In this document: positions 9,601 to 46,584 of the stretch, in pieces
Position numbering within the stretch: the first letter of the stretch is position 1
How the letters are laid out: each line of letters opens with the position of its first letter
Source: Minisyncoccota bacterium
GTDB taxonomy: Bacteria > Patescibacteriota > Minisyncoccia > Phycocordibacterales > GCA-2401445
Assembly: GCA_040879725.1 (NCBI GenBank)
Contig: JBBDJV010000015.1
Span: 32,127 to 96,126 of the forward strand
DNA length: 64,000 bases
Direction of reading: 5' to 3'
The notes under the pieces: generated by a model
Database searches by the model: none
Told to the model about the DNA's origin: nothing
The model's input: only the letters and a program-made list of their open reading frames with translations
Made by a program: the position numbers and the translations under genes

Positions 9601-12600
9601 CGTGGCTAGTTGGTCCCTCAGGAATATTTAATCACTACGACGGAACTATTGCTTTTAATTCAAGTGATACAGGCGAAACTATTGCTTCAGGAAATTCACC
9701 TTTTGGAACCGTTAGCTTCAATAACTCAAATGGAGGATGGGCTGTCACAGAGAACGCCACATCAAGTTCTGGTTGGAATATTACTGACGTATCTGAATTT
9801 ACCGTTGAGTCAGGTGTGGTTGTGGCTGTTGGTGGTGATTTTAGTAATGATGTCGGAGGTGCGGAAACAACATGGACAGGATCGACTTTGGTTTTAAATT
9901 CCAATACCCCATTCTCAATAAATGATAAATCAACCGGAAGTGACGAGTATGCTTCTATTGTTTTAAATAGTGGCACTAAAGTGAGTATGTGGAATTCGAG
10001 CGCAACGGCGGTTAGTGCTAACAGCGATTCTTATTTATATTCACAAGATCATGCTGGTGTAGATGGAAATCTTTATATTTGGGGTGAGTATGTGCGTTCA
10101 TCAGGTGTGGAGCATTGGAGCCATGCGACTGACTTTGACGGAACCAGTCTTTCTGGTAGTGAACGAGCTGTTTCTGTTTTGTTTGACTCAGGAGCTAGTG
10201 CGGAAATAAATAACTCAACGCTTTCAATTGTTGGCGGAGTGGGAGCAACAACAACAATTAATAATCAAGGAAGTGGAGCATACTCTCTTTCAGTAGTAAA
10301 TAGTACAACCACTGCACAGTATTATGCATTCAGGAACTTAGATAGTAGTGGTTTTGTTTTAACAGGAGAAACGTCTGTTACTTCATTATCAAATGGAGAT
10401 TTTGAATTATCAGCAGATGGAGGTTCACTTGTAACACTTTCTGCTGAAACAATCGATGAGAATCCAACATTACAGATTAGCCGGGTTCGTTTTGCAACCT
10501 CAACAGGAATAACGTCTGGATTTAACGTTACCGCAACAGGAACACCTACTTCGTACTGGTGGTATAGGAATCATTATGGCAATTATGCTGGAGAAGCGTT
10601 TGATAATGATCCGGGAGATAACCCTGGAAATATTCGTTGGGATGACAGCAATCTTTCAATCACTGTTTCGGGAATAGTCTATTATTCTGATCGTGCTACT
10701 ACAATGGGTAGTCCTGTGTGTGATGGAAGCACTAACACTGTTCGTGTAGATGTTCAGGGAGGAACAGGGGGAAGTGCTCCGTGTAATGCAACAACTGGAG
10801 AATTTTCAATCGAAGGGGTGTCATTAAGTGGAGACGGAATAGTAACAACATATCTTGATACAAATGGTGGATCACGCGCGGTGGCGATATCAAAAACTCC
10901 AACCGCAGACATAACTAATCTTGGACTATATGAAAGTTGGCTTACAATTAGGAACGAAGATGTGAATTCGGTATCAATATCTGACCTTGTTGCCTTTGAT
11001 AGCTCGGGTGATTCTGATGTATTCTTCTCTGCAAATGAAGGCTCACCGGATACGTTGGTCTTGGAGGATGGTTTTGGATTATATGTTGAAGAAGGGAAGT
11101 CTTTTTCACCTAATGGAAATATAACACTTGTTTCAGGGAGTACTGATTTCGTTGCGGGAACATTTGAGCTGGGAACAAGTAGCCTTTTGACGTTTAATGA
11201 CGGAGAAGACCATGCAGTTGGCGGAAGCTTTATAGTAGGGACTAACGCAACCGCAACAGTAGCAAGTTCAAGTCTTACCTTTACCGCTACAACTTCCGGA
11301 AAAACCATTACACCTAATGGCTCATCACTCTATGATGTTGCCTTTACTGGTGTTGGTGGCGAATGGGAACTTAGTACCTCGAGTATTACGGGGGACTTTG
11401 TAGTAACCGCGGGAACTGTTGTTGGAACTTCAGATGTTTTGGTAACCAGCGGTTCAATAACCGGAAATGGCGTGCTTGCATTTACTGATGGCGCAGTAAC
11501 ACTTCAGAAAGCAGGAAACTTCGGAGGTTCGGAAAACTGGACATTCGCTAACTTGGTATTTGGTGACGGTACAACAAATGCAACTACAACAAAAATTGGA
11601 GCGAATAATATTCTGGTGGAAAATCAATTAACCATAGACACAAATCATGTTCTTCTTGCAGGAGATGATGAGTGGGAATTAGGAGGAAGTGGTACTCCGT
11701 TTGTAATTTCAGGAGACTTTGACGCGGAAACTTCAACCGTTACCTATAGTGGGACAAGCGCGACAACAGTTACTGCCGAAGAGTATAACGCTCTTACTCT
11801 TGCACCGTCTGGAGCGGGATCTCCAAACTACACTCTTGCCTCAGGGTCCTTTATTCTAAATACATTAGTAGTAGGTGACGGGGTTAATACGGTTTCGGTT
11901 AATGCAAACACCACTGATCCTTTAGTAAATGTAAATGGTGATGTAACAATAAATAGCAACGCAACATACGTATCATCAAATAGCTCATTGCTTTCCGTGG
12001 GGGGAAGTTGGACAAACAATGGTGCCTTTACGCATAGTAATGGAACGGTACTATTTAACTCAAGTGACACGGGAGAAATTGTATCTTCAGGTAATTCAGC
12101 GTTTGGAAATCTTCTATTTAGTAATGTTTCAGGCGGATGGGCTATTTCAGGAAATGCAACAACAAGCGGTAATTTAATTCTCGCATCAAGTACTTCCTTT
12201 ACTCTTTCTCCTGGTAGTACGCTTTCGGTTGGTGGGATGTTTGAAAACCAACTTGATGGAGGAGTAACAACATGGGACGGAACAACATTGGTTCTCGAAG
12301 GTGCGGTAGGATACTCAGTCAATTCAGCGACAAGTACAGGGGATACATACAATACATTAGTTATTGATGAAAATACCGATGTCCGCCTCTGGTCCTCATC
12401 CGCAGGAACCACCACTGTCGCAAGTACCGCATCACTCTACTCACAAGACCACGCAGGAGTAGACGGTGACCTCTACATCTGGGGAGACTATCGCCGAACT
12501 ACCGGTAATGACTACTGGAGCTATGCTACTGACTTTGACGGAACCGCACTTACCGGAGGAAGTGAACGACAAGTAAACGTACGCTTTGCTCCAAATGCTT

Positions 12601-15600
12601 CTACTACAGTAACCGGTGGAAGTTTGCAGATTATCGGAACATCAGATGCTACGACGACTATAGATAGGCAGAGTACGGGGAATTACGGTATTGAGATAGA
12701 AGGTGGTACGTTCACGGCTTCTTACTATAGTTTTGAAAATATGGGTTCTCGCGGACTTGGGTTTAGCGGAACACCGACAGTAACAAATATTTCAGATGGA
12801 GATTTTGAGTTGGGACTCGAAGGACAGACGCTCATAACGGTAGACGCAAGTGTTATTGATGCAAATCCAACTAAAACATTCAGTAGAAATCGTTTTGCTA
12901 CAGCAGGTTCTGTTACGAGTGGAATAAACGTTACTGTGGAGGGAACGTCCGTAAGTTCGTGGAGGTTTAGTGACCACTATGGTGATTTGGACGGTGAAGC
13001 AAATGACAGCGATCCAGGCGGTGATCCAGGATATGTTATTTGGGATGATAGCGCGGGAGATATTACTGTATCTGGTGTTGTGTATCAGAACGATAGAGTT
13101 ACTCCTGCTGGTGGAGCAGTGTGTGATGGAACAACGAATGTCGTTCGGCTTTTGGTGGAGGGAGCGGGTAGCTACTTCGTGCCGTGTGCTTCAGGAACAG
13201 GAGTATACACAATACCAAGTGTAACTTTCTTACCGAGCGATGTCTTCACGGTATTTCTTGATAATGCATCCGAAGATGCTGTAGCGGTAACGTACGGAGC
13301 ACTTACCAGTATTGCAAATATGCACCTTTATACAGATCACGTAATAGTGCGTCACGAAGGAGTAGACCCGATTACCATAAGTGAACTTGCGGTATATGAT
13401 GGAGGTGATGATGCGGATATTCCGTATACAACAACCCTAACTCCCGACACACTTTCTACTGGAGCGGGTACCGCTCTCTATGTATGGCAAGGAAAAACAT
13501 TTACTCCGGGAGGAGATGTGACGGTTACGGGAAATGGTACAACCAATGAGTATGACGGTACGCTGTATGTGTGGCAGAATGCAAATTTTGTTGCCGAAGG
13601 CAGTGAGTATTTCACTATCGGAGGAAGCTTGATTGCGAGCTCGAGCGCGGTTATTACCAGTGCTAGTTCAGATTTTGACTTTACTTCAACCGCTACCGGA
13701 AAAGTGGTACGCACAAACAGCTCGCCACTAGCTTCAGTTACATTCTCAGGTAGTGGAGGCGCGTGGTCCTTCCCCGAAACAACCGTTTCAGTGGAAGATG
13801 ATTTTACCATTACTGCTGGATCGGTAAGTCTTCCTGTGGGCACAACGACAGTTGCCGGATCATTTATAAATAATGGAGGAACCTTCACGCATAATAGTGG
13901 AACAGTGCAGTTAAATGGAACAGAAGTTGGTAATTCAATTCAAGTTGGTGGATCAGACTTCTATAACCTAACAATCGGAGGTACGGGTTCTTGGACATTC
14001 CTTGATACCAATGCAACCACAACAAATCAACTTCGCTTTGAGTATGGCTCAACAACGCTTCCGTCAGGGGTACTTACTGTGGGCGCTACACTTACTTCTG
14101 TAAATGGAACCTTTAATCACAACAACGGAGATGTGAAATTTATTTCTACCAGTTCAGGTAATGTTATTACCCAAAAAGGCTCAGGATTTGGCGGAATAAC
14201 TTTCGATGGTACTGGAGGATCTTGGTCATTTGCACAAAGTGTCGCTACTACTACCAAGGACTTCGCTATTGTAAACGGTTCGGTTGCATTACCGACAGAC
14301 ACGCTTCGGGTCGGAGGTTCGTTTATTAACGAAGGTTCATTCAGTCACAGTACCGGTACGGTGTTAATGAATTCCGCACTTACGGGAGAGGTAATAACTC
14401 CGGGAAGTGATCCATTCCATAACCTAACAATACAAAACAGCGCAGGGGGATGGACGCTTACCGGTTCAGCTACCACAACAAATAACTTTAACCTTTCTAC
14501 CAGCACAAGCTTTACTCTTGTTCCGGGTTCAACCTTGAATGTCGGGGGTTCATTTACAAATACCTCGGGCGGTGCGGGAACTTCGTGGGACGGAACGACG
14601 ATAAACCTTACTGGAGGCAATAGTTATTCAATAAATGGACGATTAAGCTCCGGAGATGAATACAATACTCTGGTAGTATCTACAACAACAAAAGCTCGCC
14701 TCTGGTCCTCATCCGCAGGAACCACCACTGTCGCAAGTACCGCATCACTCTACTCACAAGACCACGCAGGAGTAGACGGTGACCTCTACATCTGGGGAGA
14801 CTATCGCCGAACTACCGGTAATGACTACTGGAGCTATGCTACTGACTTTGACGGAACCGCACTTACCGGAGGAAGTGAACGACAAGTAAACGTACGCTTT
14901 GCTCCAAATGCTTCTACTACAGTAACCGGTGGAAGTTTGCAGATTATCGGAGCATCAGATGCTACGACGACTATAGATAGGCAGAGTACGGGCACGTATG
15001 GTCTTTCTGTGCTCGGAGGAACAGTAAATGTAGATAGATATCAGATAAGAAATATTGATGAATTGGGATTGTATATTTCTGGACAACCTACCGTTACCAG
15101 TCTTTCAAATGGAGATTATGAGCTCGATAAAGAGGGTGGTTCAATGATTACTGTTTCTTCCACAACGATTGATTTCAACCCATCGCTCTTTATTGGTGGT
15201 GCAAAATTTGCAACATCTACTGGAATAACAAGTGGATTCAACGTGACGTTGCTGGGAACACCAATAAATGCGTGGACTTTTACTGGGCATAGCGGAAATT
15301 ACGATGGAGAAGCATATGACAGTGATGGTGGAGATGCATGTGGAAAAATACGATGGAGTGACAGTGTGTGTCTCTTTGTAAGTCAAGAAAGCTATAGATT
15401 TAGAAATGATGACGGAGGGGAAGGGGTCCCTAATGACGAGTGGTACCATTCAGATTGGGATAAACGTATGAGAATTGCGATTACAAACGCTTCCACTTCA
15501 GCGCTCACAAATCAACAAGTAAAAATTGAGTTACCAAAGGCCACTGATATGCAAAGTGATTACGGAGACCTTCGGTTTACCGACAACTCAGGAACAACGA

Positions 15601-35233: not shown

Positions 35234-35411
35234 CAACAACCCCGCTTTTCGGAAGCGGGGTATGTTTTTGGTATTGCATTGAAAATAGTATGTACATTTT
35301 ATTTTTACCTAAGCTTAGCTTAGGTAAAAATCAGATTTGTATAGTTTTTATTAAATGCGCACGCCGGCGTGCGCATTTAAATGGCTCTATATAAGCCATA
35401 TTTGACCTACA

Positions 35412-35903
35412 TTATTCTCGCTCGAGGGTGAGCCATTTGAAGGGGGGCGTGTGTTCTGTGTGGTGTTCTTCAGAAATTTTCTTCGTGAAGTTGTCATACG
35501 GGGGAAAATAAGTATCGCCTTGTTCATCACTTTCAATTAAGGTGAGATAGAGCCGAGAGGTTGCGGGGAGTAGCTGTTTATATATTTCTCCACCTCCGAT
35601 AATAAAAATTTCTTGGGACTCTATTGTTCTGGCATAGGCAAGTGCGTCTTCGGGGGAAGGTACAACAACCACGCCAGCAGGCGCGAAATTCGCGTTGCGC
35701 GATATGACGATAGAGGTGCGACCAGGGAGTGGACGTCCGATGGATTCGTAAGTTTTGCGTCCCATGATGATGGGGTGATTCATTGTAAGTTGTTTAAAGC
35801 GCTTCAAGTCACTCCCGATACGCCAAATAAGCTCATTGCCTTTTCCAATAACGCGTGTTTCTTTGCCAAGAGCGACAATCATGCTTACAATAGGTATATT
35901 CAT
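35412..35903 (-). CDS. folA: dihydrofolate reductase
   Basis: 'MIVALGKETRVIGKGNELIWRIGSDLKRFKQLTMNHPIIMGRKTYESIGRPLPGRTSIVISRN'. I moved the start from the ORF-track start at 36056 to the ATG at 35903 (MNIPIVSMIV...). Confidence 0.85.
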   Translation of the reverse strand: MNIPIVSMIVALGKETRVIGKGNELIWRIGSDLKRFKQLTMNHPIIMGRKTYESIGRPLPGRTSIVISRNANFAPAGVVVVPSPEDALAYARTIESQEIFIIGGGEIYKQLLPATSRLYLTLIESDEQGDTYFPPYDNFTKKISEEHHTEHTPPFKWLTLERE

Positions 35904-35919
35904 TTGGTAATAGTAACGT

Positions 35920-36411
35920 ATGGATAAAGAAAAGTACAAGCGACCATCCTGGGATGAATATTTCATGGGATTGGTAAAAGAAGTAGGTACTCGAGCAACT
36001 TGTGATAGAGGAAGATCTGGTTGTGTTATTACTCGTGACCGAAGAATACTTTCCACTGGTTATGTTGGAGCTCCATCTGGGTGTAAGGATTGTGATGAAG
36101 CAGGGCATGAGATGCATACCGTAACACATCCAAATGGTAAAACATCACAACATTGTATTCGAACGAGTCACGCTGAAGCAAACGCCATAGCGCTTGCCGC
36201 GAGGAATGGAGTGATGCTTGATGGTGCGACTCTTTATTGCAACATGACACCTTGTTATGCTTGTGCAAAGATTATTATCAATGCTGGTGTTGTACGAGTT
36301 GTCGTTCGTACCGATTACCATGCAGGAGAAAGAAGTAAAGAAATTTTTAAAGAAGCGGGAGTTGCTTTTGAAATGACGGAAGGAGGTATGGAAACATATG
36401 ATAACCAGTAA
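35920..36411 (+). CDS. dCMP deaminase (cytidine/deoxycytidylate deaminase family)
   Basis: Zn-binding 'HAEANA' and 'PCYACAKII'. Confidence 0.85.
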   Translation: MDKEKYKRPSWDEYFMGLVKEVGTRATCDRGRSGCVITRDRRILSTGYVGAPSGCKDCDEAGHEMHTVTHPNGKTSQHCIRTSHAEANAIALAARNGVMLDGATLYCNMTPCYACAKIIINAGVVRVVVRTDYHAGERSKEIFKEAGVAFEMTEGGMETYDNQ

Positions 36412-36413
36412 TT

Positions 36414-36728
36414 ATGATTGATATAAAAAAATTACAAAAAGAAGTTTTTCAAAACAAGATTGAAAAAGGTTTTAATACCACAGATGTAGCTCTTGAGTTT
36501 TGTCGCGCACACGAAGAGCTTTCAGAAGCGTTTAAGAAATATAACCAAAAGGAAGCCGGTGTTGCTGAAGAGCTAGCTGACGTCGCAATTTTCCTACTTG
36601 GCATGGCTGAGATCCTTGGGTTTGATTTGGAGTCAGAACTAACACGAAAAGTAGAAATAAATAAAAAAAGAAAATATAAGAAAGTAAATGGAGTGTTAGT
36701 GCGAGAAAAAACAGATATTGACCCGTAG
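36414..36728 (+). CDS. MazG-like nucleotide pyrophosphohydrolase
   Basis: 'ALEFCRAHEELSEAFKK...EELADVAIFLLGMAEILGFDL' is the all-alpha NTP-PPase EExxE/D signature. Confidence 0.65.
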   Translation: MIDIKKLQKEVFQNKIEKGFNTTDVALEFCRAHEELSEAFKKYNQKEAGVAEELADVAIFLLGMAEILGFDLESELTRKVEINKKRKYKKVNGVLVREKTDIDP

Positions 36729-37571
36729 CTACACAATCATCTTCGCTTTGATAGGGTCGTGGTGTTTGTAGTTTTCAAGTTTGATATCGTCCATGGTGAA
36801 CGCGTCAATATCAGTGATGTCTGGGTTAAGCCATAGTGTCGGAGGTGTTAAAGGAGTACGAGAAAGTTGTTCTTTTACTGCGTCAAAATGTTCGTGATAA
36901 ATATGAGCGTCGTTCAAGGTGAGTATGCATTCATGTGCTTTTTTGCCTGTTACTTGTGCCACCATTGCGAGCATGAGGGCATAGGAAGCGATGTTGAAAG
37001 GAACTCCCAAGAACATATCACAACTCCTCTGTATCATGTGAAGTGAAAGTTTGTCGTCGTGTACAAAAAACTGGAACATCATATGGCAAGGAGGAAGTGC
37101 CATGTCGTCCATTTCGCCCGGGTTGAACGCGGTAACAAGTAGTCGTCTGTCGTGTGGGTTTGTTTTTATCTTCTGAATAACTTCCGCAAGTTGATCAACC
37201 GTTGTTCCGTCCGGCTTTTTCCATTTTCTCCATTGTATTCCGTACACTCGTCCAAGATCTCCATCAGACTGAGCTTTTGGCTTCCAATAGTCTGATTCCG
37301 CATTTGCGGTCCAGATTGTTGAATCTTTACCGACAAGTTTTTTTAGGTCGTTGTCATTCATGCGGTCTTTTTTCCCGCCTGCTTCAATAAACCAGAGTAG
37401 TTCACTTTTTACTGCCTTAAACGCAAGCTTTTTCGTGGTAACTGCAGGGAAGCCATCTTCCATGTTAAAGCGCATTTGAATAGCAAATAACGCTCGAGTG
37501 ACCGCATTTCTTGTTTGTCTGTCGTGTCCTTCATCAAGGATGCGCTTGAGTACATCATTATATATTTTCAT
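36729..37571 (-). CDS. thyA: thymidylate synthase (ThyA)
   Basis: 'ALPPCHMMFQFFV' carries the catalytic Cys and 'GVPFNIASYAL' has Asn at the dUMP-specificity position. The gene ends tail-to-tail with the MazG-like gene at zero gap. Confidence 0.9.
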   Translation of the reverse strand: MKIYNDVLKRILDEGHDRQTRNAVTRALFAIQMRFNMEDGFPAVTTKKLAFKAVKSELLWFIEAGGKKDRMNDNDLKKLVGKDSTIWTANAESDYWKPKAQSDGDLGRVYGIQWRKWKKPDGTTVDQLAEVIQKIKTNPHDRRLLVTAFNPGEMDDMALPPCHMMFQFFVHDDKLSLHMIQRSCDMFLGVPFNIASYALMLAMVAQVTGKKAHECILTLNDAHIYHEHFDAVKEQLSRTPLTPPTLWLNPDITDIDAFTMDDIKLENYKHHDPIKAKMIV

Positions 37572-37631
37572 ATAATTATAATAGCATATCCCATTAAAGC
37601 CTTATGTTTCGCCATGTGTTACTATAAGGAG

Positions 37632-38252
37632 ATGAAAAAAGGACTATTTATCGTTATGGACGGGTGCGAAGGGGCAGGGAAAAGCTCAATGATTGAGGTT
37701 TTGAAAGAACATTTTTCTGAGAAGAACTTCCTATTTACACGCGAGCCGGGTGGGTCGCTGTTTGCTGAACAGATACGGACACTCATGCTTTCTCCTGAAG
37801 CAAAAGAAGCGAGTGCGGAAACTCAGTTTGGGTTAGTGTGGGCTGCACGGCACGACCACGTGACACAAACCATTGAGCCTGCTCTCCAAGAAGGACTTAC
37901 GGTAGTGAGTGACCGGTTTGATTCTTCTACATTTGCATACCAACTGTATGGCCAGAAAAGTCTACATTTAAGAGAGCACTTTTGGAATACGCGAGACGTG
38001 TATTTAAAGCACACCGTGCCAGACCTCTATGTATTCTTTGATGTTGATCCAAAGGTGGGAATGGAGAGGGTGCAGAAGCGAAAAGGAGAACGGACGCACT
38101 TTGATGAGCGTGATCTAAGTTTTCACAATGAAGTAAGAAAAGGATTTAAGGAGTTCTTAACGCAAGTTCCGAGTGTTGTTATTGATGCGAATAAAACGCA
38201 AGAAGAAGTAAAGAAACTTTTTATAGCAGAGATAGAAAAAATAATGCAATGA
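37632..38252 (+). CDS. tmk: thymidylate kinase
   Basis: P-loop 'FIVMDGCEGAGKSS', and an RBS 'aggag' before ATG 37632. I moved the start from the ORF-track start at 37515. Confidence 0.85.
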   Translation: MKKGLFIVMDGCEGAGKSSMIEVLKEHFSEKNFLFTREPGGSLFAEQIRTLMLSPEAKEASAETQFGLVWAARHDHVTQTIEPALQEGLTVVSDRFDSSTFAYQLYGQKSLHLREHFWNTRDVYLKHTVPDLYVFFDVDPKVGMERVQKRKGERTHFDERDLSFHNEVRKGFKEFLTQVPSVVIDANKTQEEVKKLFIAEIEKIMQ

Positions 38253-38671
38253 ACCTCAGAATAAAAAAGTTACACAGCGATGCAATTATTCCTTCATACG
38301 CGCACGAGGGTGATGCGGGCATGGATTTGTTCTCACTTGAAAAAGTTGTGATAGAACCCAATACGCAAGTATCACTTGCTACGGGTATTGCGCTTGAAAT
38401 ACCGGAAGGGTACGTAGGTTTGATTTGGGATAAGAGCGGATTGTCGCATAAGCACAGACTAAAAACATTTGGAGGTGTCGTAGACGCAGGGTATCGAGGA
38501 GAAGTGCGAATTGGAATTATGAATTTGTCAGACACTTCATATGTTTTTGAAAAGGGACACAAGATAGCACAGATGTTGATTCAACCTGTCGTCTCGGCTA
38601 CTATTACGGAGTCAGACAACCTTTCAGACTCATCTCGTGGTGAAGGTGGTTTTGGAAGTACAGGAAAATGA
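38249..38671 (+). CDS. dut: dUTP diphosphatase
   Basis: 'AGMDL', 'GVVDAGYRGEV' and 'RIAQ' are dUTPase motifs. It overlaps tmk in ATGA. Confidence 0.9.
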   Translation: MNLRIKKLHSDAIIPSYAHEGDAGMDLFSLEKVVIEPNTQVSLATGIALEIPEGYVGLIWDKSGLSHKHRLKTFGGVVDAGYRGEVRIGIMNLSDTSYVFEKGHKIAQMLIQPVVSATITESDNLSDSSRGEGGFGSTGK

Positions 38672-40374
38672 AAAACGAACTGGAAAAACATATTACAGAA
38701 GCGCTCATAAGTCTTGGTATTGAAGTTACCAAGGGTGTTGTAGTTGAACGTCCAGCGGACAGTACTCACGGAGACTGGTCGAGTACTGTTGCACTTGCAT
38801 ACGCAAAGCAGGCAAAAAAAGCTCCCTTGGCTCTCGGAGAGTCGCTTGTCGCTATTCTGAAAGAAAAAAATATACAACACGTAAAAGATATTTCACTTTT
38901 GCATCCCGGGTTTATAAACATCACACTTACTTCGGAGTACTACACGGAACGCATTAAAGATATCCTTTTAAAAGGAAAAGAGGGTGAGGTGAGTGGTGAG
39001 TTTAAGGGTAAGCGGGTTATGGTTGAATATACCGACCCAAACCCGTTTAAGGTTTTTCATATCGGCCATTTGATGAACAACACAATCGGTGAGTCTATCG
39101 CCTGTTTGATGAGTGCGGGTGGTGCAGACGTGGTGCGTGCTAACTATCAAGGAGATGTCGGTTTGCACGTGGCAAAGGCGATATGGGGAATGCGCCAGAG
39201 TAGGCCGGCATTTCCGGAGGATACCGATGATCTTAAAACAAAAATGACTTTTGTTAGCAATGCGTACGCATACGGTGCTAGTCAGTATGAAAGTGATGAG
39301 CAAGCAAAAAAAGATATTGATGCAATTAACAAAGAAGTCTACACACGTGAAAATGAAGATATAAATGTATACTACGACAAAGGGCGCGCGTGGAGCTTGG
39401 AACATTTTGAAGAAGTTTATGCACTTCTCGGTACAAAGTTTGATATCTACTATTTTGAAAGTGAGGTTGCTACTAAGGGTGTTGAAATTGTTCGCAAGCA
39501 TATAGGGACAGTGTTTGAGGAGAGCAACGGTGCGGTAATATATCGTGGCGAAAAAAATGGATTGCACACACGAGTGTTTATTAACTCACAAGGACTTCCA
39601 ACGTATGACGGAAAAGATATCGGACTTACTTGGAGAAAAGAGGAAACAGACCCAAGTGATATTTCTGTTGTCGTGAGTGCTGAAGAACAGAAAGAGTATT
39701 ACAAAGTACTCGTATCAGCGATACGCGAGATTGATCCCGCGATAAGTGAAAAGATGAGACATGTGACACACGGCATGATGCAAGGGCCTGACGGGACTAA
39801 ATTATCATCAAGAAAAGGTACCGCACTTACCGGAGAGTCACTTATTGAAGAGGTTGAAGAACTTGTATGGGAAAAGCTTCGTGAGAGGGATATGAGTGAA
39901 GAGGATAAAAGAGAAGTGATGCAAGCTGTTTCTGTTGGCGCGGTGAAGTATTCAATACTCCGTTCAAAAACAAGTAGTAACATTGCGTTTGATTTTGATA
40001 AATCAATTTCGTTTGAAGGAGACTCGGGTCCGTACTTGCAGTATACTGCCGTGCGCGCGCGTTCGGTTTTGGATAAAGCGGGAAGCCAATTTCTTGCAGA
40101 TGCTACTCCGGTGTTTGAGGAAGTAGGAAAAGCCCTTTATCTTCTACTTGATAAATTTGAAGAGGTTGTGGTTCGCTCGCAGCGAGAGCTCGAACCGCAT
40201 CATATAGCGACGTACGCAATAGAGCTCGCAAGTGCATTTAACGCTTTCTATGCCAATACGCCTATTCTTAATGTTCCTGAAACACCTTCTCGTCTTGCTC
40301 TTGTGCATGCGGTTGAGTTGGTACTTACACACTCTCTTTCACTTCTCGGTATACGGGTCCCTAAGAAAATGTAG
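38668..40374 (+). CDS. argS: arginine--tRNA ligase
   Basis: 'PNPFKVFHIGHLMNNTIG' (HIGH) and a C-terminal DALR-type anticodon-binding region. It overlaps dut in ATGA. Confidence 0.9.
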   Translation: MKNELEKHITEALISLGIEVTKGVVVERPADSTHGDWSSTVALAYAKQAKKAPLALGESLVAILKEKNIQHVKDISLLHPGFINITLTSEYYTERIKDILLKGKEGEVSGEFKGKRVMVEYTDPNPFKVFHIGHLMNNTIGESIACLMSAGGADVVRANYQGDVGLHVAKAIWGMRQSRPAFPEDTDDLKTKMTFVSNAYAYGASQYESDEQAKKDIDAINKEVYTRENEDINVYYDKGRAWSLEHFEEVYALLGTKFDIYYFESEVATKGVEIVRKHIGTVFEESNGAVIYRGEKNGLHTRVFINSQGLPTYDGKDIGLTWRKEETDPSDISVVVSAEEQKEYYKVLVSAIREIDPAISEKMRHVTHGMMQGPDGTKLSSRKGTALTGESLIEEVEELVWEKLRERDMSEEDKREVMQAVSVGAVKYSILRSKTSSNIAFDFDKSISFEGDSGPYLQYTAVRARSVLDKAGSQFLADATPVFEEVGKALYLLLDKFEEVVVRSQRELEPHHIATYAIELASAFNAFYANTPILNVPETPSRLALVHAVELVLTHSLSLLGIRVPKKM

Positions 40375-40413: not shown

Positions 40414-40803
40414 ATGAGCACCACCAAAGTTATTGGGTCTGAATCGTGGAAACAACGCGATCGGTTGTTTCTGAAGGAACTGAAGAAAAAACGAAAGAAA
40501 GGATTACTATCGAAAGAAGAAGAGAGCACAATCACCAATTCATTGTCTTGTTTGAGCACAGATACACGAGAGGTTAATCTCTCGCTTGCGGGGAATGAAG
40601 AAGATTTCAAGCTGTACGAGGGTATGGTTCGAAACATTGTTTTGGATGTTGCCAAAGTAAAGAAGCTACTTTCACTTCTCGCGACACCTAAACACGATGC
40701 AGTTTATGGCCAGTTTGCTTTTGCGGTAGAAGTGCTTGAGCAATCCCGCAGAACCATAACTGAATTCCACGAAAAAAATACTCAAAAAGGGAGCGTGAAA
40801 TGA
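40414..40803 (+). CDS. hypothetical protein (K/E-rich, likely coiled-coil)
   Basis: An ORF with no recognisable motif. It overlaps the next ORF by 4 nt. Confidence 0.45.
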   Translation: MSTTKVIGSESWKQRDRLFLKELKKKRKKGLLSKEEESTITNSLSCLSTDTREVNLSLAGNEEDFKLYEGMVRNIVLDVAKVKKLLSLLATPKHDAVYGQFAFAVEVLEQSRRTITEFHEKNTQKGSVK

Positions 40804-41096
40804 ATTTGTATGTACTTGTCGAGCATGGGATTCTTCCTCCGGACGGAGTGGGAATTCTTAAAACAAACATGGATAAGTGGAGGCTTTCTGTTTCCGCGCG
40901 TGAGCAGTTATGCTTACTGATTCACGACATTGAGTCTCCATACATTACTCTGGATGATGTGATCAGGGTCTGGCGTGAGCTCGGACTTCACGACTGGGTG
41001 AGTGATGAAGGAGAGTCCCTTGAGTGGGGACTCCGCAGGGCGGGCGAGGCGTATACCAGGCTCAAAGCGTTGCACCAGGAGCGAAGATTGGTGTAA
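40800..41096 (+). CDS. hypothetical protein
   Basis: An ORF co-transcribed with 40414..40803 and followed by a strong terminator. Confidence 0.45.
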   Translation: MNLYVLVEHGILPPDGVGILKTNMDKWRLSVSAREQLCLLIHDIESPYITLDDVIRVWRELGLHDWVSDEGESLEWGLRRAGEAYTRLKALHQERRLV

Positions 41097-41110
41097 TTCA
41101 AAAAAAATCA

Positions 41111-41145
41111 AAAGCGCTGGAGAAAGAATCCAGCGCTTTTTTTGT
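41111..41145 (+). terminator. rho-independent terminator
   Basis: 'agcgctgga gaaagaa tccagcgct' followed by TTTTTTT. Confidence 0.8.
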
Positions 41146-41168
41146 GGGAAGTGCTTGCCTTGAGACTA

Positions 41169-41226
41169 TAAGAAATAATTGACAGGGTAGGTATTTAAAC
41201 GTACATTACTTTTAGTTCTTTGATAC
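41169..41226 (+). repeat. 58-bp promoter-containing direct repeat, copy 1
   Basis: 'taagaaataaTTGACAgggtaggtatttaaacgTACATTacttttagttctttgatac' contains TTGACA, a 17-nt spacer, then TACATT. It is identical to 42032..42089. Confidence 0.85.
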
Positions 41227-41307
41227 AGATGTTCATTTTCAGCTGTGGCGAAATGTAGTAGTCACACATCAACAAAAATAGCGAAAACCAAGAAAGGAAA
41301 AACCGCT

Positions 41308-41931
41308 ATGAGCAAGCTCCATAAACAAACTACCAAATTGATTGCCCGTATCGCTGAAAATCTCCCTGAGATGGACAGCGACATCATACAGAGATGGATA
41401 GACAATCCCAAAAGACTTCAGAAGTTTCTGCGGAAGCTTTGTATGCCCGAAAAGGAAATTCCCTTGAATACTATCGACCTCGGCGCACCACCTCGACTTC
41501 CGTTTGACGGAGTCGAAGTAGCTCAGCATGTTGGAAAAGGAATTGTCGAAATCGAACTGCGATCGGACGACAATCTTTACATCGGGGGCAAAAAGGTACT
41601 TCTGTATTTGTCGGAATTGCAGATAGGTAATAAGAAAATTGAGGGACACAAACTTCGCCAAGAGCTCGAAGAAAGCAAACGAGAAGTTCTCTTGAACGCA
41701 AATGTCTCGGACTACCTCTACCACCACCCCGAATTGTTTCCTGAACACTGGAAGAAAGACAAAATCGGGGAAACTCTCTATATCTTCTTCTGGGGAAGCA
41801 TTTTTGTCTCTCCAATGCACGATTTTCTGTATGTCCCGGTTCTGTTTTGGCGTGATGGCGGGTTGTGTCGGGATACCCGCTTCCTCGAGGACGGATGGCA
41901 TCGTCAGGATCCGTCTGCTTCCGTAGCATAA
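41308..41931 (+). CDS. hypothetical protein (alternative start at 41245)
   Basis: An ORF directly downstream of repeat copy 1. The coding strand is supported by the flanking plus-strand promoter and terminator, although two long antisense ORFs cover the same DNA. Confidence 0.5.
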   Translation: MSKLHKQTTKLIARIAENLPEMDSDIIQRWIDNPKRLQKFLRKLCMPEKEIPLNTIDLGAPPRLPFDGVEVAQHVGKGIVEIELRSDDNLYIGGKKVLLYLSELQIGNKKIEGHKLRQELEESKREVLLNANVSDYLYHHPELFPEHWKKDKIGETLYIFFWGSIFVSPMHDFLYVPVLFWRDGGLCRDTRFLEDGWHRQDPSASVA

Positions 41932-41984
41932 CTTGGGTACTTTGGACTTGGTCACTTAGACCTAGCCTTTGAGAACCTTTGATC

Positions 41985-42027
41985 TCAGCCCTGCCCAATT
42001 TTAGATTGGTGCGGGGCTTTTTATTTA
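41985..42027 (+). terminator. probable intrinsic terminator
   Basis: GC-rich imperfect stem 'cagccctgccc...gcggggct' followed by TTTTTATTT. Confidence 0.5.
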
Positions 42028-42031
42028 GGGA

Positions 42032-42089
42032 TAAGAAATAATTGACAGGGTAGGTATTTAAACGTACATTACTTTTAGTTCTTTGATAC
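42032..42089 (+). repeat. 58-bp promoter-containing direct repeat, copy 2
   Basis: Identical to 41169..41226. Confidence 0.85.
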
Positions 42090-42096
42090 GAAGGTT

Positions 42097-42146
42097 GGTC
42101 ATAGCGAAAAGCCTTTTAACTATGTTCAGGGTTTCTCGCTATGACC
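42097..42146 (+). promoter_or_regulatory. 17-bp stem / 16-nt loop hairpin in the 5' leader of 42217..42894
   Basis: 'ggtcatagcgaaaagcc' pairs with 'ggtttctcgctatgacc' (1 mismatch, 1 G-U). Immediately downstream is a tandem 'acagatatg' x2, giving a 3-codon uORF (ATG GGC AAC TGA). Confidence 0.5.
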
Positions 42147-42216
42147 ATGCTGGAAATAGCACCCACCTCGGTGTAGAGGTACAGATATGGGCAACTGAGC
42201 CCAAGGAGATACAGAT

Positions 42217-42894
42217 ATGAGCACAAAAGAATTCGCAATTGCTGAGGTTATGCCGGGGCAATTAAACGCACTGGTTAAAACCATTATGCGTCAGACTGGA
42301 GTGAGTGACCCAAACGAAGCGGTTCGCCTCGTCAATTCAAGGGAGTTTGTACTTACCCGACCAGTCCGTGATTGGCATAAGAAAGAGGGTTTTGTTTATT
42401 TTACTGTTACGAGTGAAAATATGACCGGCGAGGATTGGATTACGTGGTACAAAAATAAGGGCATTGATTTGGAGGACGATGTGAAATGTTTGCTCCGTTC
42501 AGAACATTTTAAGCCGACCTCTGGCGTGACAACGAGAGTTGTGCTTTCCCCGGGATCATCTTTATTGATGAGAGAACGTTTGAAGATTGAATGTCTAGAT
42601 GAGGCGCTTTGTGCTCATGGTTATATGACACCAAACATCGAGCTTGGTTTTCTCATGGACAAAAAGTTCGCAAAAAAGGAAATTGCAGAAGATATGGGCT
42701 TCAACTACATTACGGTCATGCATGATCCCGTTCACATAGCCGGACCAGATCAGCGTTTGGTTTATGTGAGTTCAAGTGCTGATAGGCGTCAGTTTTGTTT
42801 GTTTCGTTACAGATCAAATACTGCATTTGTTCTAAAAGAGGCGTTTGCATTTGCTATTTCGGAAGAACAGTATGCTCTCAGTAAATCAAGCTGA
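42217..42894 (+). CDS. hypothetical protein
   Basis: An ORF preceded by 'aggag' and followed by a strong terminator. Confidence 0.55.
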   Translation: MSTKEFAIAEVMPGQLNALVKTIMRQTGVSDPNEAVRLVNSREFVLTRPVRDWHKKEGFVYFTVTSENMTGEDWITWYKNKGIDLEDDVKCLLRSEHFKPTSGVTTRVVLSPGSSLLMRERLKIECLDEALCAHGYMTPNIELGFLMDKKFAKKEIAEDMGFNYITVMHDPVHIAGPDQRLVYVSSSADRRQFCLFRYRSNTAFVLKEAFAFAISEEQYALSKSS

Positions 42895-42923
42895 GTTTGG
42901 TTTCAAGCAGTGTTAACCTTTTA

Positions 42924-42960
42924 GGCCCCGTCCCACTTTGCGGACGGGGCTTTTCTTTTT
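42924..42960 (+). terminator. rho-independent terminator
   Basis: 'ccccgtcc cactttgc ggacgggg' followed by CTTTTCTTTTT. Confidence 0.8.
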
Positions 42961-43050
42961 ACGGAATTACGGAAGCCAGGCTTCCGTGAAAAGAAAATGT
43001 GGTGTAATTTGCTTACCCTTATTTATACCAAAATTTTCTCTGACATATAG

Positions 43051-43079
43051 TCCACAAAACTCTCCAAAAGTGCTAGAAT
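43051..43079 (+). promoter_or_regulatory. candidate promoter with extended -10 for ileS
   Basis: 'tccaca', a 17-nt spacer, then 'TGcTAGAAT'. This places the transcription start after the ORF-track ATG at 43078. Confidence 0.4.
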
Positions 43080-43101
43080 GACTACATTCGGGCACTTTTT
43101 T

Positions 43102-46100
43102 ATGAGCGAAGAAAATAAAAAATTACAAAAAACACGAGGGGAAAAAGAAAGAGAGATTCTTGAGTTTTGGCGTGAAAATAAGGTGTTTGAGACTTCAGAG
43201 CAAAAACCCGCTCCAAAGGGTGATTTTGTATTTTATGACGGCCCTCCTTTCGCGACAGGTCTTCCTCACTATGGACACATGCTTCCGGCTACTATCAAGG
43301 ACGTAATTCCGCGTTTCAAGACGATGCAAGGTTTTCGCGTGCGCAGACGTTGGGGGTGGGACTGTCACGGGCTACCAGTTGAAAATCTTATTGAGAAAGA
43401 ATTAGGTCTCAAAGACAAGCAAGATATTCTAAAGTACGGAATTGGGAAGTTTAACGTGGAAGCAAAAAATAGTGTTTTGCGCTATGCGGATGATTGGCGT
43501 GAACGTGTTCCACGGTGGGGAAGATGGATAGATATGGAGCAGGACTACCGAACCATGGACCTTGCGTACACAGAATCTATTTGGTGGATGTTTAAAACTT
43601 TGTATGAAAAAAATCTGATTACCGAAGGGTACAAGTCTATGCACCTGTGTCCGCGGTGCGAAACAACTCTTTCGAATTTTGAAGTGAACCAAGGGTATAA
43701 AGATATTACGGATATTTCAGTGTACGTTGCATTTGAATTATCTGATACACCAAACACTTTCCTCCTCGCATGGACAACAACTCCATGGACGCTTCCGGGA
43801 AATGTCGCACTTGCCGTGCATCCTGATGTTGCGTACGTAACAGTAGAACAAGGTGGTAAGAAATATATTCTTGCCGAAGAGCTAGCTCAAAAGAGATTTG
43901 CTATCGGGAGCGATGCCGTACTCAGCGGTTCGCCTATAAAAGGAAGTGAACTTATCGGAAAAGCATACAAACCGGTATTTCCGTACTATGCGGAAGATAC
44001 CACTCTCGAACAGAGAGAAAATGGATGGAAAGTGTACGGCGCGGATTTTGTTACTACGGAAGATGGAACAGGCATTGTGCATATCGCTCCTGCGTTTGGA
44101 GATGACGACATGAAGCTCGGAGAAAAAGAATCACTACCGTTTGTTCAGCATGTTACAACAGGTGGAGTGTTCAAACCGGAAGTAAGTGATTTCGCGGGAG
44201 TGAGTGTGAAGCCGAAAGATGACCATCAGTCAGGTGATGTCGCGATAATTAAATATCTTGCTGGGAAAGGAGTACTTTTTGCAAAAGAAAAAATTATTCA
44301 CTCGTATCCGCACTGTTGGCGGTGCGATACTCCACTTCTTAATTACGCATCAAGCTCTTGGTTTATTAAAGTAACCGCATTTAAAGACAGGCTGGTAGAA
44401 GCAAATAACAATGTTTCTTGGGTACCAAAAGAAATGGGCGAAGGGCGTTTCGGTAAGTGGCTTTTGGGTGCTCGTGATTGGGCAATATCTCGCTCGCGGT
44501 TTTGGGGAGCACCTCTGCCGGTATGGAGAAATGAAGAATCGGGAGAATTATTTATTCCAGGATCGGTTTCTGAACTAAAAGAAAAAATAGGATTTAGAAA
44601 TACGTATTTGGTAATGCGACACGGTGAGGCGGACAGTAATGCGCAAAATATTTTAAGTGGAAAAAAAGATAACCCTCATCACGTAACAGAAAAAGGTAAA
44701 AAGCAGGTTGCTCATGCGGTTGAAAAACTGAAGGGAACATCAGTGGATGTTGTTTTCGTTTCTCCATTTGTTCGCACGAAAGAAACCGCAGAAATGGTAA
44801 AAGAAGCACTCGGGCTTACTGACACACAGATAGTTGTAGATGAGAGAATAGGGGAAATAGATACGGGTGATTTTAATAACACACCTATAGACGAGTATCG
44901 TGCTTACTTTAAGAGTACCGCTGAGAAGTTTTCAAAACCCGCACCAAACGGAGAAAGTTTGCGCGACGTGCGAAGACGAGTAGGCGAGTTTCTGTATGAA
45001 ATTGACGCAAAATATGAAGGCAAAACCATTTTAATTATTTCTCACGAATATCCTATCTGGCAGTTGTATTCTGTTGCGGAAGGATGGGATGAACGTGGTT
45101 CTATTCAGGCAAAAAATGACCGAGATGATTTCGTTGAAACGGGAAGTGTTAACAAAATTTCGTTTGCACGTCTGCCGGTTAATGAATCGTTTGAAACAGA
45201 CTTACATCGTCCGTATATTGATGAAATTGAACTCACCGCAAAAGACGGAACAAAACTGAAAAGAGTACCCGAAGTGTTTGACTGCTGGGTTGAGTCTGGG
45301 TCAATGCCGTTTGCTTCTCGGGGGTATGTTGGGAAAGCACTTCCTGACTTTGATCCGAATACGGGAGTTGGTTTTCCGGCAGACTTTATCGCTGAAGGGC
45401 AAGACCAAACCCGTGGTTGGTTTTACTCACTTATTGTTCTCGGGGTTGCATTGTTTGGAAAATCTCCGTTTAAGAATGTTGTGGTAAACGGTGTGGTGCT
45501 TGCCGGAGATGGGCAGAAAATGAGTAAACGACTTAAGAATTATCCCGATCCGATGGAAGTCGTTGAAACGTACGGTATGGACGCGCTTCGATTGTATTTT
45601 CTCGGTTCACCGCTGGTGAAAGCGGAAGATGTTTCTTTTTCAGAAAAAGGAGTTGATGAGGTAATGAAGAAAAATATCGGCAGACTTGAAAATGTTGTTA
45701 TGTTCTATCAGATGTTTAGTGCGGATGCTGAAGCGACTACAGAGAGCCCACATGTTCTCGATAGATGGATTGTCAGTACGCGTAATAATCTCATTGCGTC
45801 TGTTACGGCTTCACTCACAGCGTATCAGTTTGACCGAGCAGTCAGAGCACTTTCTGATTTTATTGATGATCTTTCAACGTGGTATGTTAGGCGTTCTCGA
45901 GACCGATTCAAAGGGGAAGACAGAGAGGATGCGGGACATGCACGAAGAGTACTTCGAGAAACACTCTCTCTCTTTTCGCAAGTTAGTGCGCCGTTTATTC
46001 CTTTTACCGCAGAGTCTGTGTATCAAATCGTAAAACAAGATGGAGCACCGAAAAGTGTGCATCTCACTGTGTGGCCGGTTGCGGGAGAAATTGACGAAAC

Positions 46101-46584
46101 CCTTTTGTCTGAAATGAAGACAGTAAGAGAAGTGGTGTCACTGGCATTCGAAGCAAGAACCAAAGCAAAAATTAAAGTACGGCAACCTCTCGCATCCCTC
46201 ACAATAAAAACAACACTGCCTACAGTGCTACTTGAACAGATTGCGGAAGAGGTAAATGTAAAAGAAGTTCGGATTGGAGAAACAAAAAATGAAGAAGTAC
46301 TACTCGACACTGTACTTACTCCGGAGTTGATAGAGGAAGGGTACATGCGCGATGTGCTTCGACACATTCAAGAGAAAAGAAAGGACGCAGGTCTAGAGAC
46401 GAGTGACTATATTACACTTACCGTAGTGGGGAATAAAGAAGTTCAAACCCTTATTTCTTCTATGAAAAAAGAATTAGAACGCGTGGCGCAAGTGTCGCGT
46501 ATTGAATTCGAGGAAAAGAGTGAAATGGAGCCGACACTTACACTGGGAGATATGAGTCTTTCGGTTTCAATAAAGAAAGTATAA
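43102..46584 (+). CDS. ileS: isoleucine--tRNA ligase with an embedded histidine-phosphatase (PGM-family) domain
   Basis: Class I motifs 'PFATGLPHYGHM' and 'KMSKRLKN', plus an editing domain. Between 'WAISRSRFWGAPLPVW' and 'RVPEVFDCWVESGSMPF' lies a ~210-aa insert containing 'LVMRHGEADSN' and 'LIISHEYP'. Confidence 0.9.
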   Translation: MSEENKKLQKTRGEKEREILEFWRENKVFETSEQKPAPKGDFVFYDGPPFATGLPHYGHMLPATIKDVIPRFKTMQGFRVRRRWGWDCHGLPVENLIEKELGLKDKQDILKYGIGKFNVEAKNSVLRYADDWRERVPRWGRWIDMEQDYRTMDLAYTESIWWMFKTLYEKNLITEGYKSMHLCPRCETTLSNFEVNQGYKDITDISVYVAFELSDTPNTFLLAWTTTPWTLPGNVALAVHPDVAYVTVEQGGKKYILAEELAQKRFAIGSDAVLSGSPIKGSELIGKAYKPVFPYYAEDTTLEQRENGWKVYGADFVTTEDGTGIVHIAPAFGDDDMKLGEKESLPFVQHVTTGGVFKPEVSDFAGVSVKPKDDHQSGDVAIIKYLAGKGVLFAKEKIIHSYPHCWRCDTPLLNYASSSWFIKVTAFKDRLVEANNNVSWVPKEMGEGRFGKWLLGARDWAISRSRFWGAPLPVWRNEESGELFIPGSVSELKEKIGFRNTYLVMRHGEADSNAQNILSGKKDNPHHVTEKGKKQVAHAVEKLKGTSVDVVFVSPFVRTKETAEMVKEALGLTDTQIVVDERIGEIDTGDFNNTPIDEYRAYFKSTAEKFSKPAPNGESLRDVRRRVGEFLYEIDAKYEGKTILIISHEYPIWQLYSVAEGWDERGSIQAKNDRDDFVETGSVNKISFARLPVNESFETDLHRPYIDEIELTAKDGTKLKRVPEVFDCWVESGSMPFASRGYVGKALPDFDPNTGVGFPADFIAEGQDQTRGWFYSLIVLGVALFGKSPFKNVVVNGVVLAGDGQKMSKRLKNYPDPMEVVETYGMDALRLYFLGSPLVKAEDVSFSEKGVDEVMKKNIGRLENVVMFYQMFSADAEATTESPHVLDRWIVSTRNNLIASVTASLTAYQFDRAVRALSDFIDDLSTWYVRRSRDRFKGEDREDAGHARRVLRETLSLFSQVSAPFIPFTAESVYQIVKQDGAPKSVHLTVWPVAGEIDETLLSEMKTVREVVSLAFEARTKAKIKVRQPLASLTIKTTLPTVLLEQIAEEVNVKEVRIGETKNEEVLLDTVLTPELIEEGYMRDVLRHIQEKRKDAGLETSDYITLTVVGNKEVQTLISSMKKELERVAQVSRIEFEEKSEMEPTLTLGDMSLSVSIKKV

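Follow-up and report, generated by a model that had tools for sequence, protein, structure and literature searches.

Diversity-generating retroelements (DGRs) are unusually abundant in Patescibacteria, and we know of no function, localisation or regulation assigned to their small targets in this phylum. In this phylum, DGRs form a cellular clade; recognisable domains are missing from their targets, and remote targets are known (PMC8144416). The targets of 'clade 2' DGRs are described as small, without transmembrane or known domains, and at times distant from the reverse transcriptase (RT) (Roux et al. 2021, PMC8144416). Here we analyse a 64-kb stretch of contig JBBDJV010000015.1, hereafter the window, from a 'Candidatus Paceibacterota' metagenome-assembled genome (MAG), and within it an islet of four small genes, g1 to g4, between argS and ileS (NCBI locus tags for the region, WDZ88_03060 to WDZ88_03070). 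Very probably, the islet holds two orphan DGR variable-protein genes, g3 and g4, with a shared expression module and leader, together with an ORFan pair, g1–g2.

Genes g3 and g4 and their relatives

Gene g3 (41308–41931, plus strand) encodes 207 aa and g4 (42217–42894, plus strand) 225 aa. The start of g3 is most likely the ATG at 41308, which has an AAGGAA ribosome-binding site, and not the GTG at 41245; the 207-aa product is NCBI protein P0121. The preliminary description had presented the two as unrelated genes of about 225 aa; that size is right for g4 and wrong for g3, and their unrelatedness stands. Paralogy was considered and rejected, with no similarity by BLASTP and only a 47%-probability match of the N-terminal helices by hhalign.

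Nothing significant was found for any of the four islet proteins in Pfam, PHROGs, PADLOC or NCBIfam, the sole marginal match being to PADLOC (E 0.0036). For g3 and g4, there was likewise no sequence-level match to the Pfam FGE-sulfatase or DUF families and no chain in the PDB related by sequence. Homologues number 105 for g3 and 136 for g4. All are unnamed or 'hypothetical'; where a source is named, it is a Patescibacteria MAG (Vogel-, Jorgensen-, Campbell- or Wolfebacteria). In both family alignments, the C-terminal part forms a checkerboard in which invariant W/G/P/R columns alternate with hypervariable N/D/Y/C/S/G/R/H columns, the signature of DGR adenine mutagenesis of AAY codons.

The relatives connect both genes to complete retroelements. 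For g3, the link runs through protein P0124 of a Vogelbacteria locus (L003), which is 63% identical; downstream of its gene, the 3' end recurs as a 127-nt repeat, and next come genes for bAvd (PF22296) and an RVT_1 reverse transcriptase bearing the motifs LGNLTSQ and YADD. The variable repeat (VR, 10448–10574) and template repeat (TR, 10918–11044) of this locus differ at 15 positions, all 15 of them TR adenines. For g4, identities of 35–47% were found to genes preceding TR-Avd-RT in seven loci (L009, L013, L020, L022, L030, L040 and L041). Avd, or Avd and RT, lies downstream of g4 relatives in 8 of 34 genome loci, and seven of these eight contain A-biased VR/TR pairs (for example, 15/15 mismatches in L041, 22/22 in L040 and 25/26 in L030); the eighth, L038, matches g4 over residues 5–46 only. 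Both g3 and g4 are homologous over their full length to proteins linked to VR, TR, Avd and RT, and on this homology we assign them to Patescibacteria DGR variable-protein families. In the relatives, the VR comprises the last ~40 codons. The homologous segment of g3 (41800–41926, plus strand) aligns with the L003 VR and TR, and its final 25 nt (ATCGTCAGGATCCGTCTGCTTCCGT) are identical to the end of the L003 VR, with the L003 TR end differing at one adenine, an arrangement resembling an initiation of mutagenic homing (IMH) site. The VR-homologous end of g4 lies at about 42750–42880 (plus strand).

AlphaFold (AF2) models of g3 (pLDDT 90) and g4 (pLDDT 84) place the variable region on a C-terminal fold of C-type-lectin type. 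Fold matches for the two proteins include TvpA, Mtd and FGE-type structures; g3 matches C-type lectin domains and, more weakly, TvpA. Each protein is modelled as an N-terminal helical domain joined to a C-terminal C-type-lectin-like ligand-binding domain, and g3 also has a conserved core between these two parts. A helical pattern, G-x-(L/I)-(N/E)-A-(I/L/V)-(V/W)-(N/K)-K-(L/I)-G-G ... (F/L)-L-R-G-E, recurs in the differing N-terminal domains of these proteins, and KRLQKFLRKL in g3 is possibly a divergent form of it; this pattern could represent a common docking or effector domain.

Two further observations were made among the related loci. Beside the Vogelbacteria DGR, in L003–L006, lies a gene (8719–9443) of g4 type in its C-terminal domain, which is frameshifted in three of four near-identical assemblies; in the fourth, L005, 2 nt are missing at 8975–8976 and the gene is intact (226 aa). 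No TR matching its VR was found within the locus. In L038, positions 10484–11579 contain a 481-nt tandem duplication (615-nt overlap, 98%), all 10 differences of which fall at adenines of the downstream copy, and the VR/TR unit there seems to be present in more than two copies.

The promoter repeat and the leader RNA

Genes g3 and g4 are independently terminated and are preceded by identical promoter modules. The preliminary description had reported an identical 58-bp element ahead of each gene; the identity is exact, and the direct repeat is 59 nt long (copy 1, 41168–41226; copy 2, 42031–42089; both plus strand, spaced by 863 nt), extending to 66 nt at 95% identity. These are the only two copies in the 64 kb, and no match is expected in shuffled sequence. 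The repeat runs from an A-rich stretch before the -35 box through GTTCTTTGATAC, and the copies diverge after GATAC. In copy 1, the -35 box TTGACA (41179–41184) and the -10 box TACATT (41202–41207) are followed by GTTCTTTGATAC (41215–41226), the conserved first transcribed motif; the same parts of copy 2 lie at 42042–42047, 42065–42070 and 42078–42089. TTGACA-17-TACATT, to which that description had pointed, agrees with a sigma-70-type consensus at 10 of 12 positions, and its occurrences upstream of g3 and g4 are the two best promoter-like sites within 38–45 kb. A 23-mer of the repeat had no match in viral contigs, nor in the genome contig collection, which does not include the source genome. 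An independent Logan assembly of SRR27977663 is interrupted within each of the repeat copies, L002 stopping at 41197 and L001 beginning at 42060, and an exact-sequence look-up of the 207-aa g3 product returned no record and hence no independent contig for g3.

The same arrangement recurs ahead of related genes, where TTGAC(A), a 17-nt spacer, a (TG)TATAAT-like -10 box and a further few to ~17 nt precede GTTCTTTGATA (variants, GAYCTTTAAAA) and ACTTGCGA. Among 57 unique upstream regions from other genomes, TTGAC with a -10 box is found at the same place in 54 and a GTTCTTTGATA-like 5' motif in 50. The earlier idea of a shared regulatory module is upheld by this architecture, which precedes such genes in about 50 other genomes. 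We read the 59-nt repeat as a lineage-typical expression module comprising sigma-70-type -35 and -10 boxes, a predicted transcription start and a first mRNA motif, GUUCUUUGAUA. Promoter spacers are shared within a genome and different between genomes, which indicates duplication or gene conversion within each genome; the identity of the two copies here would reflect recent duplication or homogenisation. Promoter repeats within a genome were also seen in L011 (51 nt, 96%) and L003 (131 nt, a diverged pair at 79%).

The repeats could instead be scars of cassette insertion, left by a recombination that placed g3, together with the promoter module it carried, inside the module of g4 (or g4 inside that of g3), so that the copies mark recombination junctions around an 863-bp unit and are not the product of selection for co-regulation. 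The repeat brackets g3 plus one copy exactly, at the 863-nt spacing; the GC content at third codon positions (GC3) is foreign-looking in g3 (0.514) and close to the genome value in g4 (0.407). Moreover, the 5' module and the 3' flank are conserved as DNA across genomes and could act as homology arms, and g3-type genes occupy differing intergenic sites in syntenic relatives. However, both copies keep complete promoter elements, so that insertion is compatible with the promoter reading and does not exclude it; no integrase, transposase or att-like palindrome was found nearby, and the divergence of the L003 pair (79%) argues for long-term upkeep of two functional promoters. We therefore regard insertion scars as a serious but doubtful alternative to the expression-module reading.

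Downstream of repeat copy 2 lies a leader element of ~125 nt that is found ahead of g4-type genes everywhere. Its structure, predicted with RNAalifold from 19 sequences, consists of a P1 helix of 12+2 bp enclosing P2, a P3 helix (CCUC/GAGG), and a P4 helix (GGGC/GCCC) directly before the ribosome-binding site. For g4 (all plus strand), 42096–42113 pairs with 42130–42147 in P1, CCUC 42166–42169 with GAGG 42176–42179 in P3, and GGGC 42189–42192 with GCCC 42199–42202 in P4, after which come the ribosome-binding site AAGGAG (42203–42208) and the AUG at 42217. This leader is predicted to fold at -50.1 kcal/mol (z -4.2), a stability reached by none of 200 shuffles.

A covariance model of this 'type A' leader (R1) was searched over 574 kb, namely the window and 35 loci. 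It gave one plus-strand match per locus, directly upstream of the matched target gene; 31 of these reach E<=1e-9, and those in a further four loci are weaker. Only in L028 was there a match at another place, a marginal one of E 0.045; minus-strand matches were echoes of the palindromic P1. The window match (42092–42219, plus strand; 107.9 bits, E 7.6e-23) has no second copy. In all 31 aligned matches from the genome set, the leader lies directly 5' of the start codon. Across these 31 sequences, pairing holds in 96.5% of cells, and compensatory double changes occur in 18 of the 28 pairs, values equalled by none of 500 shuffles; when the partner strand is slid, pairing falls to 28–48%. The structure in this 5' untranslated region (UTR) is thus conserved through compensatory change. 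Even at E<=10, no family of Rfam 15 matched the g4 leader or a canonical relative, and on L003 there was only a chance match to rli52 (26.9 bits against a gathering score of 70). No description of the leader was found in the papers searched, although one may exist elsewhere.

A pattern restricted to the P1 structure recovered at least 120 metagenomic stretches, 80 of which were analysed. The ORFs (open reading frames) just downstream are mostly of ~200 aa and between them show several different N-terminal helical domains and several different C-terminal VR scaffolds; in L116 the N-terminal domain is that of g3 itself. Avd or RT is present in 24 of the 80 loci and an A-biased VR/TR pair in 18, many of the contigs being only 1–2 kb long. 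In all, more than 110 leader instances are known, nearly all directly 5' of genes for ~200-aa proteins; in L003, it is the g3-type gene that the leader precedes and not the g4-type gene. An association with phages was discarded, as the P1 pattern had 0 matches in 2.9 million viral contigs. Judged by this distribution, the leader is a general 5'UTR of Patescibacteria DGR variable-protein genes.

The 5'UTR of g3 (41227–41307, plus strand) is a short, unstructured variant, with no R1 match and a fold no better than shuffles (z -0.01). Homology to the leaders of L116, L003 gene 1 and L011 gene 2 is confined to its 3' part (AGCGAAAACCAAGAAAGGAAAAACCGCT and the ATG, with the ribosome-binding site in a small loop). 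The notion of a second conserved structure ('type B') was dropped: only ~30 nt of the g3 leader, near the ribosome-binding site, recur in three or four other loci, and it folds no better than shuffles. Nor could support be found for a pseudoknot, for pairing of the P2 strands with the stretch that follows P1, or for a strand complementary to the 5' motif or ACUUGCGA: judged by eye, the candidates were inconsistent between sequence classes. Overlapping P4 of the g4 leader is a three-codon mini-ORF (42187–42198; ATG GGC AAC TGA) with a GAGG sequence resembling a ribosome-binding site. Its 18-nt context is duplicated (42176–42193 and 42206–42223, 89%), and relatives carry ACGGGC at this site with no ATG, so the mini-ORF looks specific to this genome.

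Turning to mechanism, transcription would start about 7 nt past each -10 box. From copy 2, the transcript would run on into the conserved four-helix leader, which most likely controls translation or mRNA fate; from copy 1, only a short unstructured leader remnant would precede g3. Possibly, the UCCUCC stretch of P3, which resembles an anti-Shine–Dalgarno sequence, could pair with the ribosome-binding site instead. The pyrimidine-rich 5' motif UUCUUU is complementary to purine-rich ribosome-binding sites, and L044 displays such a pairing explicitly.

In the 3' flanks of target genes, ahead of the terminator, degenerate heptamers of the CTTTAG, CTTTGA and CTTTGG kinds are strung together in up to about 8 copies (L013, about 2660–2760; L022, about 8010–8100; L025; window, 41932–41985). 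The conserved 3' flank of g3 (41932–42024, plus strand), which by eye is visibly similar to the flanks of the L044 and L003 genes, carries the YCTTTRR motifs TACTTTGG, GCCTTTGAG and ACCTTTGAT, followed by a terminator hairpin with a T-run (41987–42018; -36.8 kcal/mol, z -2.9). These motifs resemble the 5' mRNA motif GTTCTTTGATA and may serve as a common binding site or contribute to target recognition. We put at about even the chance that the promoter, the GUUCUUUGAUA motif and the four-helix type A leader, perhaps with the YCUUURR runs of the 3' flank, constitute an undescribed Patescibacteria-wide class of cis-regulatory RNA for DGR variable-protein genes. Such a class would add a layer of regulation to hypermutable binding proteins, or provide a scaffold for exchanging their cassettes, whether or not a retroelement is nearby.

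Lone copies and the make-up of the islet

A complete DGR cassette, with RT, Avd, TR and VR in cis, is absent from the window. No YxDD-containing RT ORF was found in its six frames, tblastn with Patescibacteria DGR RT and Avd proteins gave no match, and no TR-like or A-biased repeat was detected in the 64 kb. When loci were compared under a uniform requirement for at least 2.2 kb of sequence past the gene, Avd or RT was found immediately downstream in 7 of 25 genome loci and 10 of 27 metagenome loci. About two thirds of the relatives thus stand alone, and g3 and g4, too, are lone or remote copies. Several lone relatives likewise lie among housekeeping genes (L007, L042 and L044). Of these, L044 matches the window in its backbone, argS...ileS(His-phosphatase fusion)-recO...glyS; its argS–ileS interval, which the preliminary description had suggested comparing in relatives, is filled with other small ORFs, and a g3-type gene is located past ileS. 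The position of the islet is therefore variable. With no local RT, Avd or TR, g3 and g4 could be diversified only in trans, by a DGR located outside the window. Such rewriting would be plausible for g3, the VR end of which is intact, and doubtful for g4, the VR scaffold of which is eroded.

Several points weigh against reading g3 and g4 as DGR targets under a shared regulatory module. No cognate TR or RT for either gene is present in the 64-kb window. The 3' DNA of g4 matches the family VR end at only about 16 of 29 positions, and the VR-homologous end of its product has exchanged nearly all of the conserved scaffold residues (DG to DR, W to Q, P to S, W to F, R to L and G to A); g4 may be a fossil target. 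The -10 box of the window, TACATT, lacks the TG-extended TATAAT form of most relatives, and the g3 leader is without conserved structure. Finally, the regulatory role proposed for the leader and 5' motif is argued from their position and conservation.

These points bear on a further alternative, in which both genes are relics in decay: once DGR targets, they would have been stranded when the retroelement was lost, and would have kept their promoters while being no longer functional or diversified. The absence of RT and TR from the 64 kb, the loss of the structured leader part in g3, and the erosion of the g4 VR scaffold and VR-end DNA, which has drifted toward A/T through many C-to-T and G-to-A changes in the direction of an AT-rich genome, all fit such decay. 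However, both ORFs are intact and full length with confident AF2 models, the promoter pair is perfectly conserved, and the g4 leader still scores in full. The 25-nt VR end of g3 is that of an active relative, and about two thirds of relatives are lone as well yet retain VR scaffolds. We thus consider decay of both genes rather unlikely, and favour orphan targets that keep a conserved expression module.

The remaining two genes stand apart from g3 and g4. Genes g1 (40414–40803, plus strand; 129 aa) and g2 (40800–41096, plus strand; 98 aa, with an AGGGAG ribosome-binding site) overlap by 4 nt (ATGA), in agreement with the preliminary description, the four ORFs of which are all present, and g2 is translationally coupled to g1. 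Because the argS–g1 interval contains no terminator, g1 is probably co-transcribed with argS. The islet had been described as bounded by strong terminators; this is true 3' of g2 (41110–41140, a bidirectional hairpin of 12 pairs with T-runs on both sides), g3 and g4 (42923–42952, plus strand; 11 pairs, 8 of them G-C) and fails at the argS/g1 boundary. An exhaustive phmmer search with g1 over 1.84 billion representatives returned itself and one weak repeat match, and g2 found only itself among 5.8 billion clusters. No homologue of either was found near g3 or g4 relatives in 40 DGR-target loci and four further g3-family loci, and the proposal that the four genes form one cassette is not sustained. 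We treat g1–g2 as a putative lineage-specific accessory ORFan pair unrelated to g3 and g4.

A toxin-immunity or anti-phage defence module, with g1/g2 as a toxin–antitoxin-like pair and g3/g4 as effectors, had been raised as an option. In favour of it stand the small size of g1 and g2, their 4-nt overlap, the deviant GC3 of the islet and its location among housekeeping genes; in addition, one published study reportedly finds that DGRs elsewhere diversify putative conflict-system sensors in multicellular bacteria. Yet none of the four proteins has a toxin–antitoxin or defence domain, the profile libraries yielding only the marginal PADLOC match; g1/g2 are without homologues and never stand beside g3/g4 relatives; and the g3 and g4 models contain helical and C-type-lectin-like parts only, with no enzymatic or toxin-like domain. 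This option is accordingly very improbable, and it gives way to the assignment of g3 and g4 as DGR variable proteins.

The claim of atypical composition held in part. Bulk GC (0.43–0.47) and tetranucleotide distance (76th percentile) of the islet are ordinary for the window, and it is GC3 that deviates. Against 0.335 +/- 0.048 for other window genes (78 chunks), the values are 0.566 for g2 (z 4.8, the highest in the window), 0.514 for g3 (z 3.7), 0.423 for g1 (z 1.8) and 0.407 for g4 (z 1.5). The GC3-rich codon usage of g2 and g3 points to acquired DNA. That the islet is accessory and not core, as first suggested, is borne out by this GC3, the lack of g1/g2 homologues and the L044 synteny.

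The long antisense ORFs reported over g3 (228 and 175 aa; 41269–41955 and 41471–41998, minus strand) do exist and exceed chance: a fully open alternative frame occurred in 1 of 395 equal-sized windows (35 other genes) and in 1 of 5000 synonymous resamplings of g3. It is the complete lack of TTA, CTA and TCA codons in g3, against 8.4 expected (P about 2e-4), that leaves the in-register antisense frame open. That these ORFs are real overlapping genes can be dismissed as scarcely credible, since the frame, although such full opening is rare and is seen again in homologues L057, L119, L049 and L014, is interrupted by stops in others (six in L043, seven in L124, two in L045 and one in L006), is open mainly in GC-rich genes (0.54–0.58), and opposes a sense frame that encodes the protein conserved in more than 100 homologues; a GC3 3.7 standard deviations over the genome mean is alone enough to remove the three codons. 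The antisense ORFs are thus read as a by-product of foreign-looking, GC3-rich codon usage.

Over the whole window, searches for tRNAs, and for Rfam families at gathering thresholds, found none. The g4 terminator is separated from the ileS promoter region by a second inverted repeat (42951–42997; 16-nt arms, 94%), inside which is a CGGAAGCC/GGCTTCCG hairpin. The ileS product (43078–46584) has a histidine-phosphatase domain (PF00300) inserted between tRNA-synt_1 segments, a fusion shared with L044 (2248–5871). Upstream of argS is a compact dNTP-metabolism cluster (35400–38700; L002 10–3269) of DHFR, dCMP deaminase, MazG-like protein, thymidylate synthase, thymidylate kinase and dUTPase. Adjacent imperfect palindromes (35283–35403; 33–38-nt arms) lie in the intergenic region before a minus-strand ORF (35412–36056). 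A single ORF of 5654 aa (696–17660), with internal repeats of ~2.3–2.4 kb (12015–13013 and 14328–15326, 67%; 12332–12631 and 14645–14944, 92%), probably encodes a giant surface protein.

Comparison with known systems

The window annotation is corrected to two orphan DGR variable-protein genes and two ORFans, with no toxin or defence cassette. Genes g3 and g4 are new members of known DGR target families, and the conserved promoter and leader module appears to be the part that is new; this module therefore deserves follow-up as a candidate class of cis-regulatory RNA. The locus shows lone DGR target genes embedded among housekeeping genes, and target genes across the phylum share a dedicated expression module that includes a covariation-supported leader RNA not in Rfam. 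The covariance model offers a handle on DGR targets far from any RT, which RT-anchored surveys miss by design; there is reason to re-annotate hundreds of 'hypothetical' 200-aa proteins, and the leader itself is a concrete regulatory element for testing with ligands or protein partners.

Mtd of Bordetella phage BPP-1, TvpA of Treponema denticola and the 'clade 2' targets of the candidate phyla radiation (CPR) share a C-type-lectin-like C-terminus with the models of g3 and g4. As in described DGR targets, the C-terminal VR of g3/g4 relatives pairs with an adenine-differing TR beside Avd and RT, and like CPR targets, among which remote or lone ones are known, g3 and g4 are small and without a transmembrane or known domain (PMC8144416). 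Unlike complete DGR systems, the locus lacks RT, Avd and TR, and the g4 VR is eroded. The conserved promoter, 5' motif and structured leader of g3/g4-type genes were not found described for DGR targets in the papers searched.

The duplicated promoters of contingency or variable-surface gene families, which evolve in concert, provide a second comparison. There, as at g3/g4, identical regulatory DNA precedes different variable-protein genes within a genome and diverges between genomes. However, those families consist of paralogues, whereas the g3 and g4 coding regions are unrelated and share only the expression module, and the g3/g4 locus is without a phase-variation repeat tract.

The g4 leader matches no Rfam 15 family and is a candidate regulatory element. 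Like the cis-regulatory leaders and riboswitches in Rfam, it is a multi-helix 5'UTR of ~125 nt with covariation-supported stems, is positioned between promoter and ribosome-binding site with the P4 hairpin abutting the latter and an anti-Shine–Dalgarno-like UCCUCC, and is tied to one functional gene class. The RT-1 to RT-19 motifs of Weinberg et al. 2017 (PMC5737381) lie near RT genes, whereas the g4-type leader lies 5' of the target gene.

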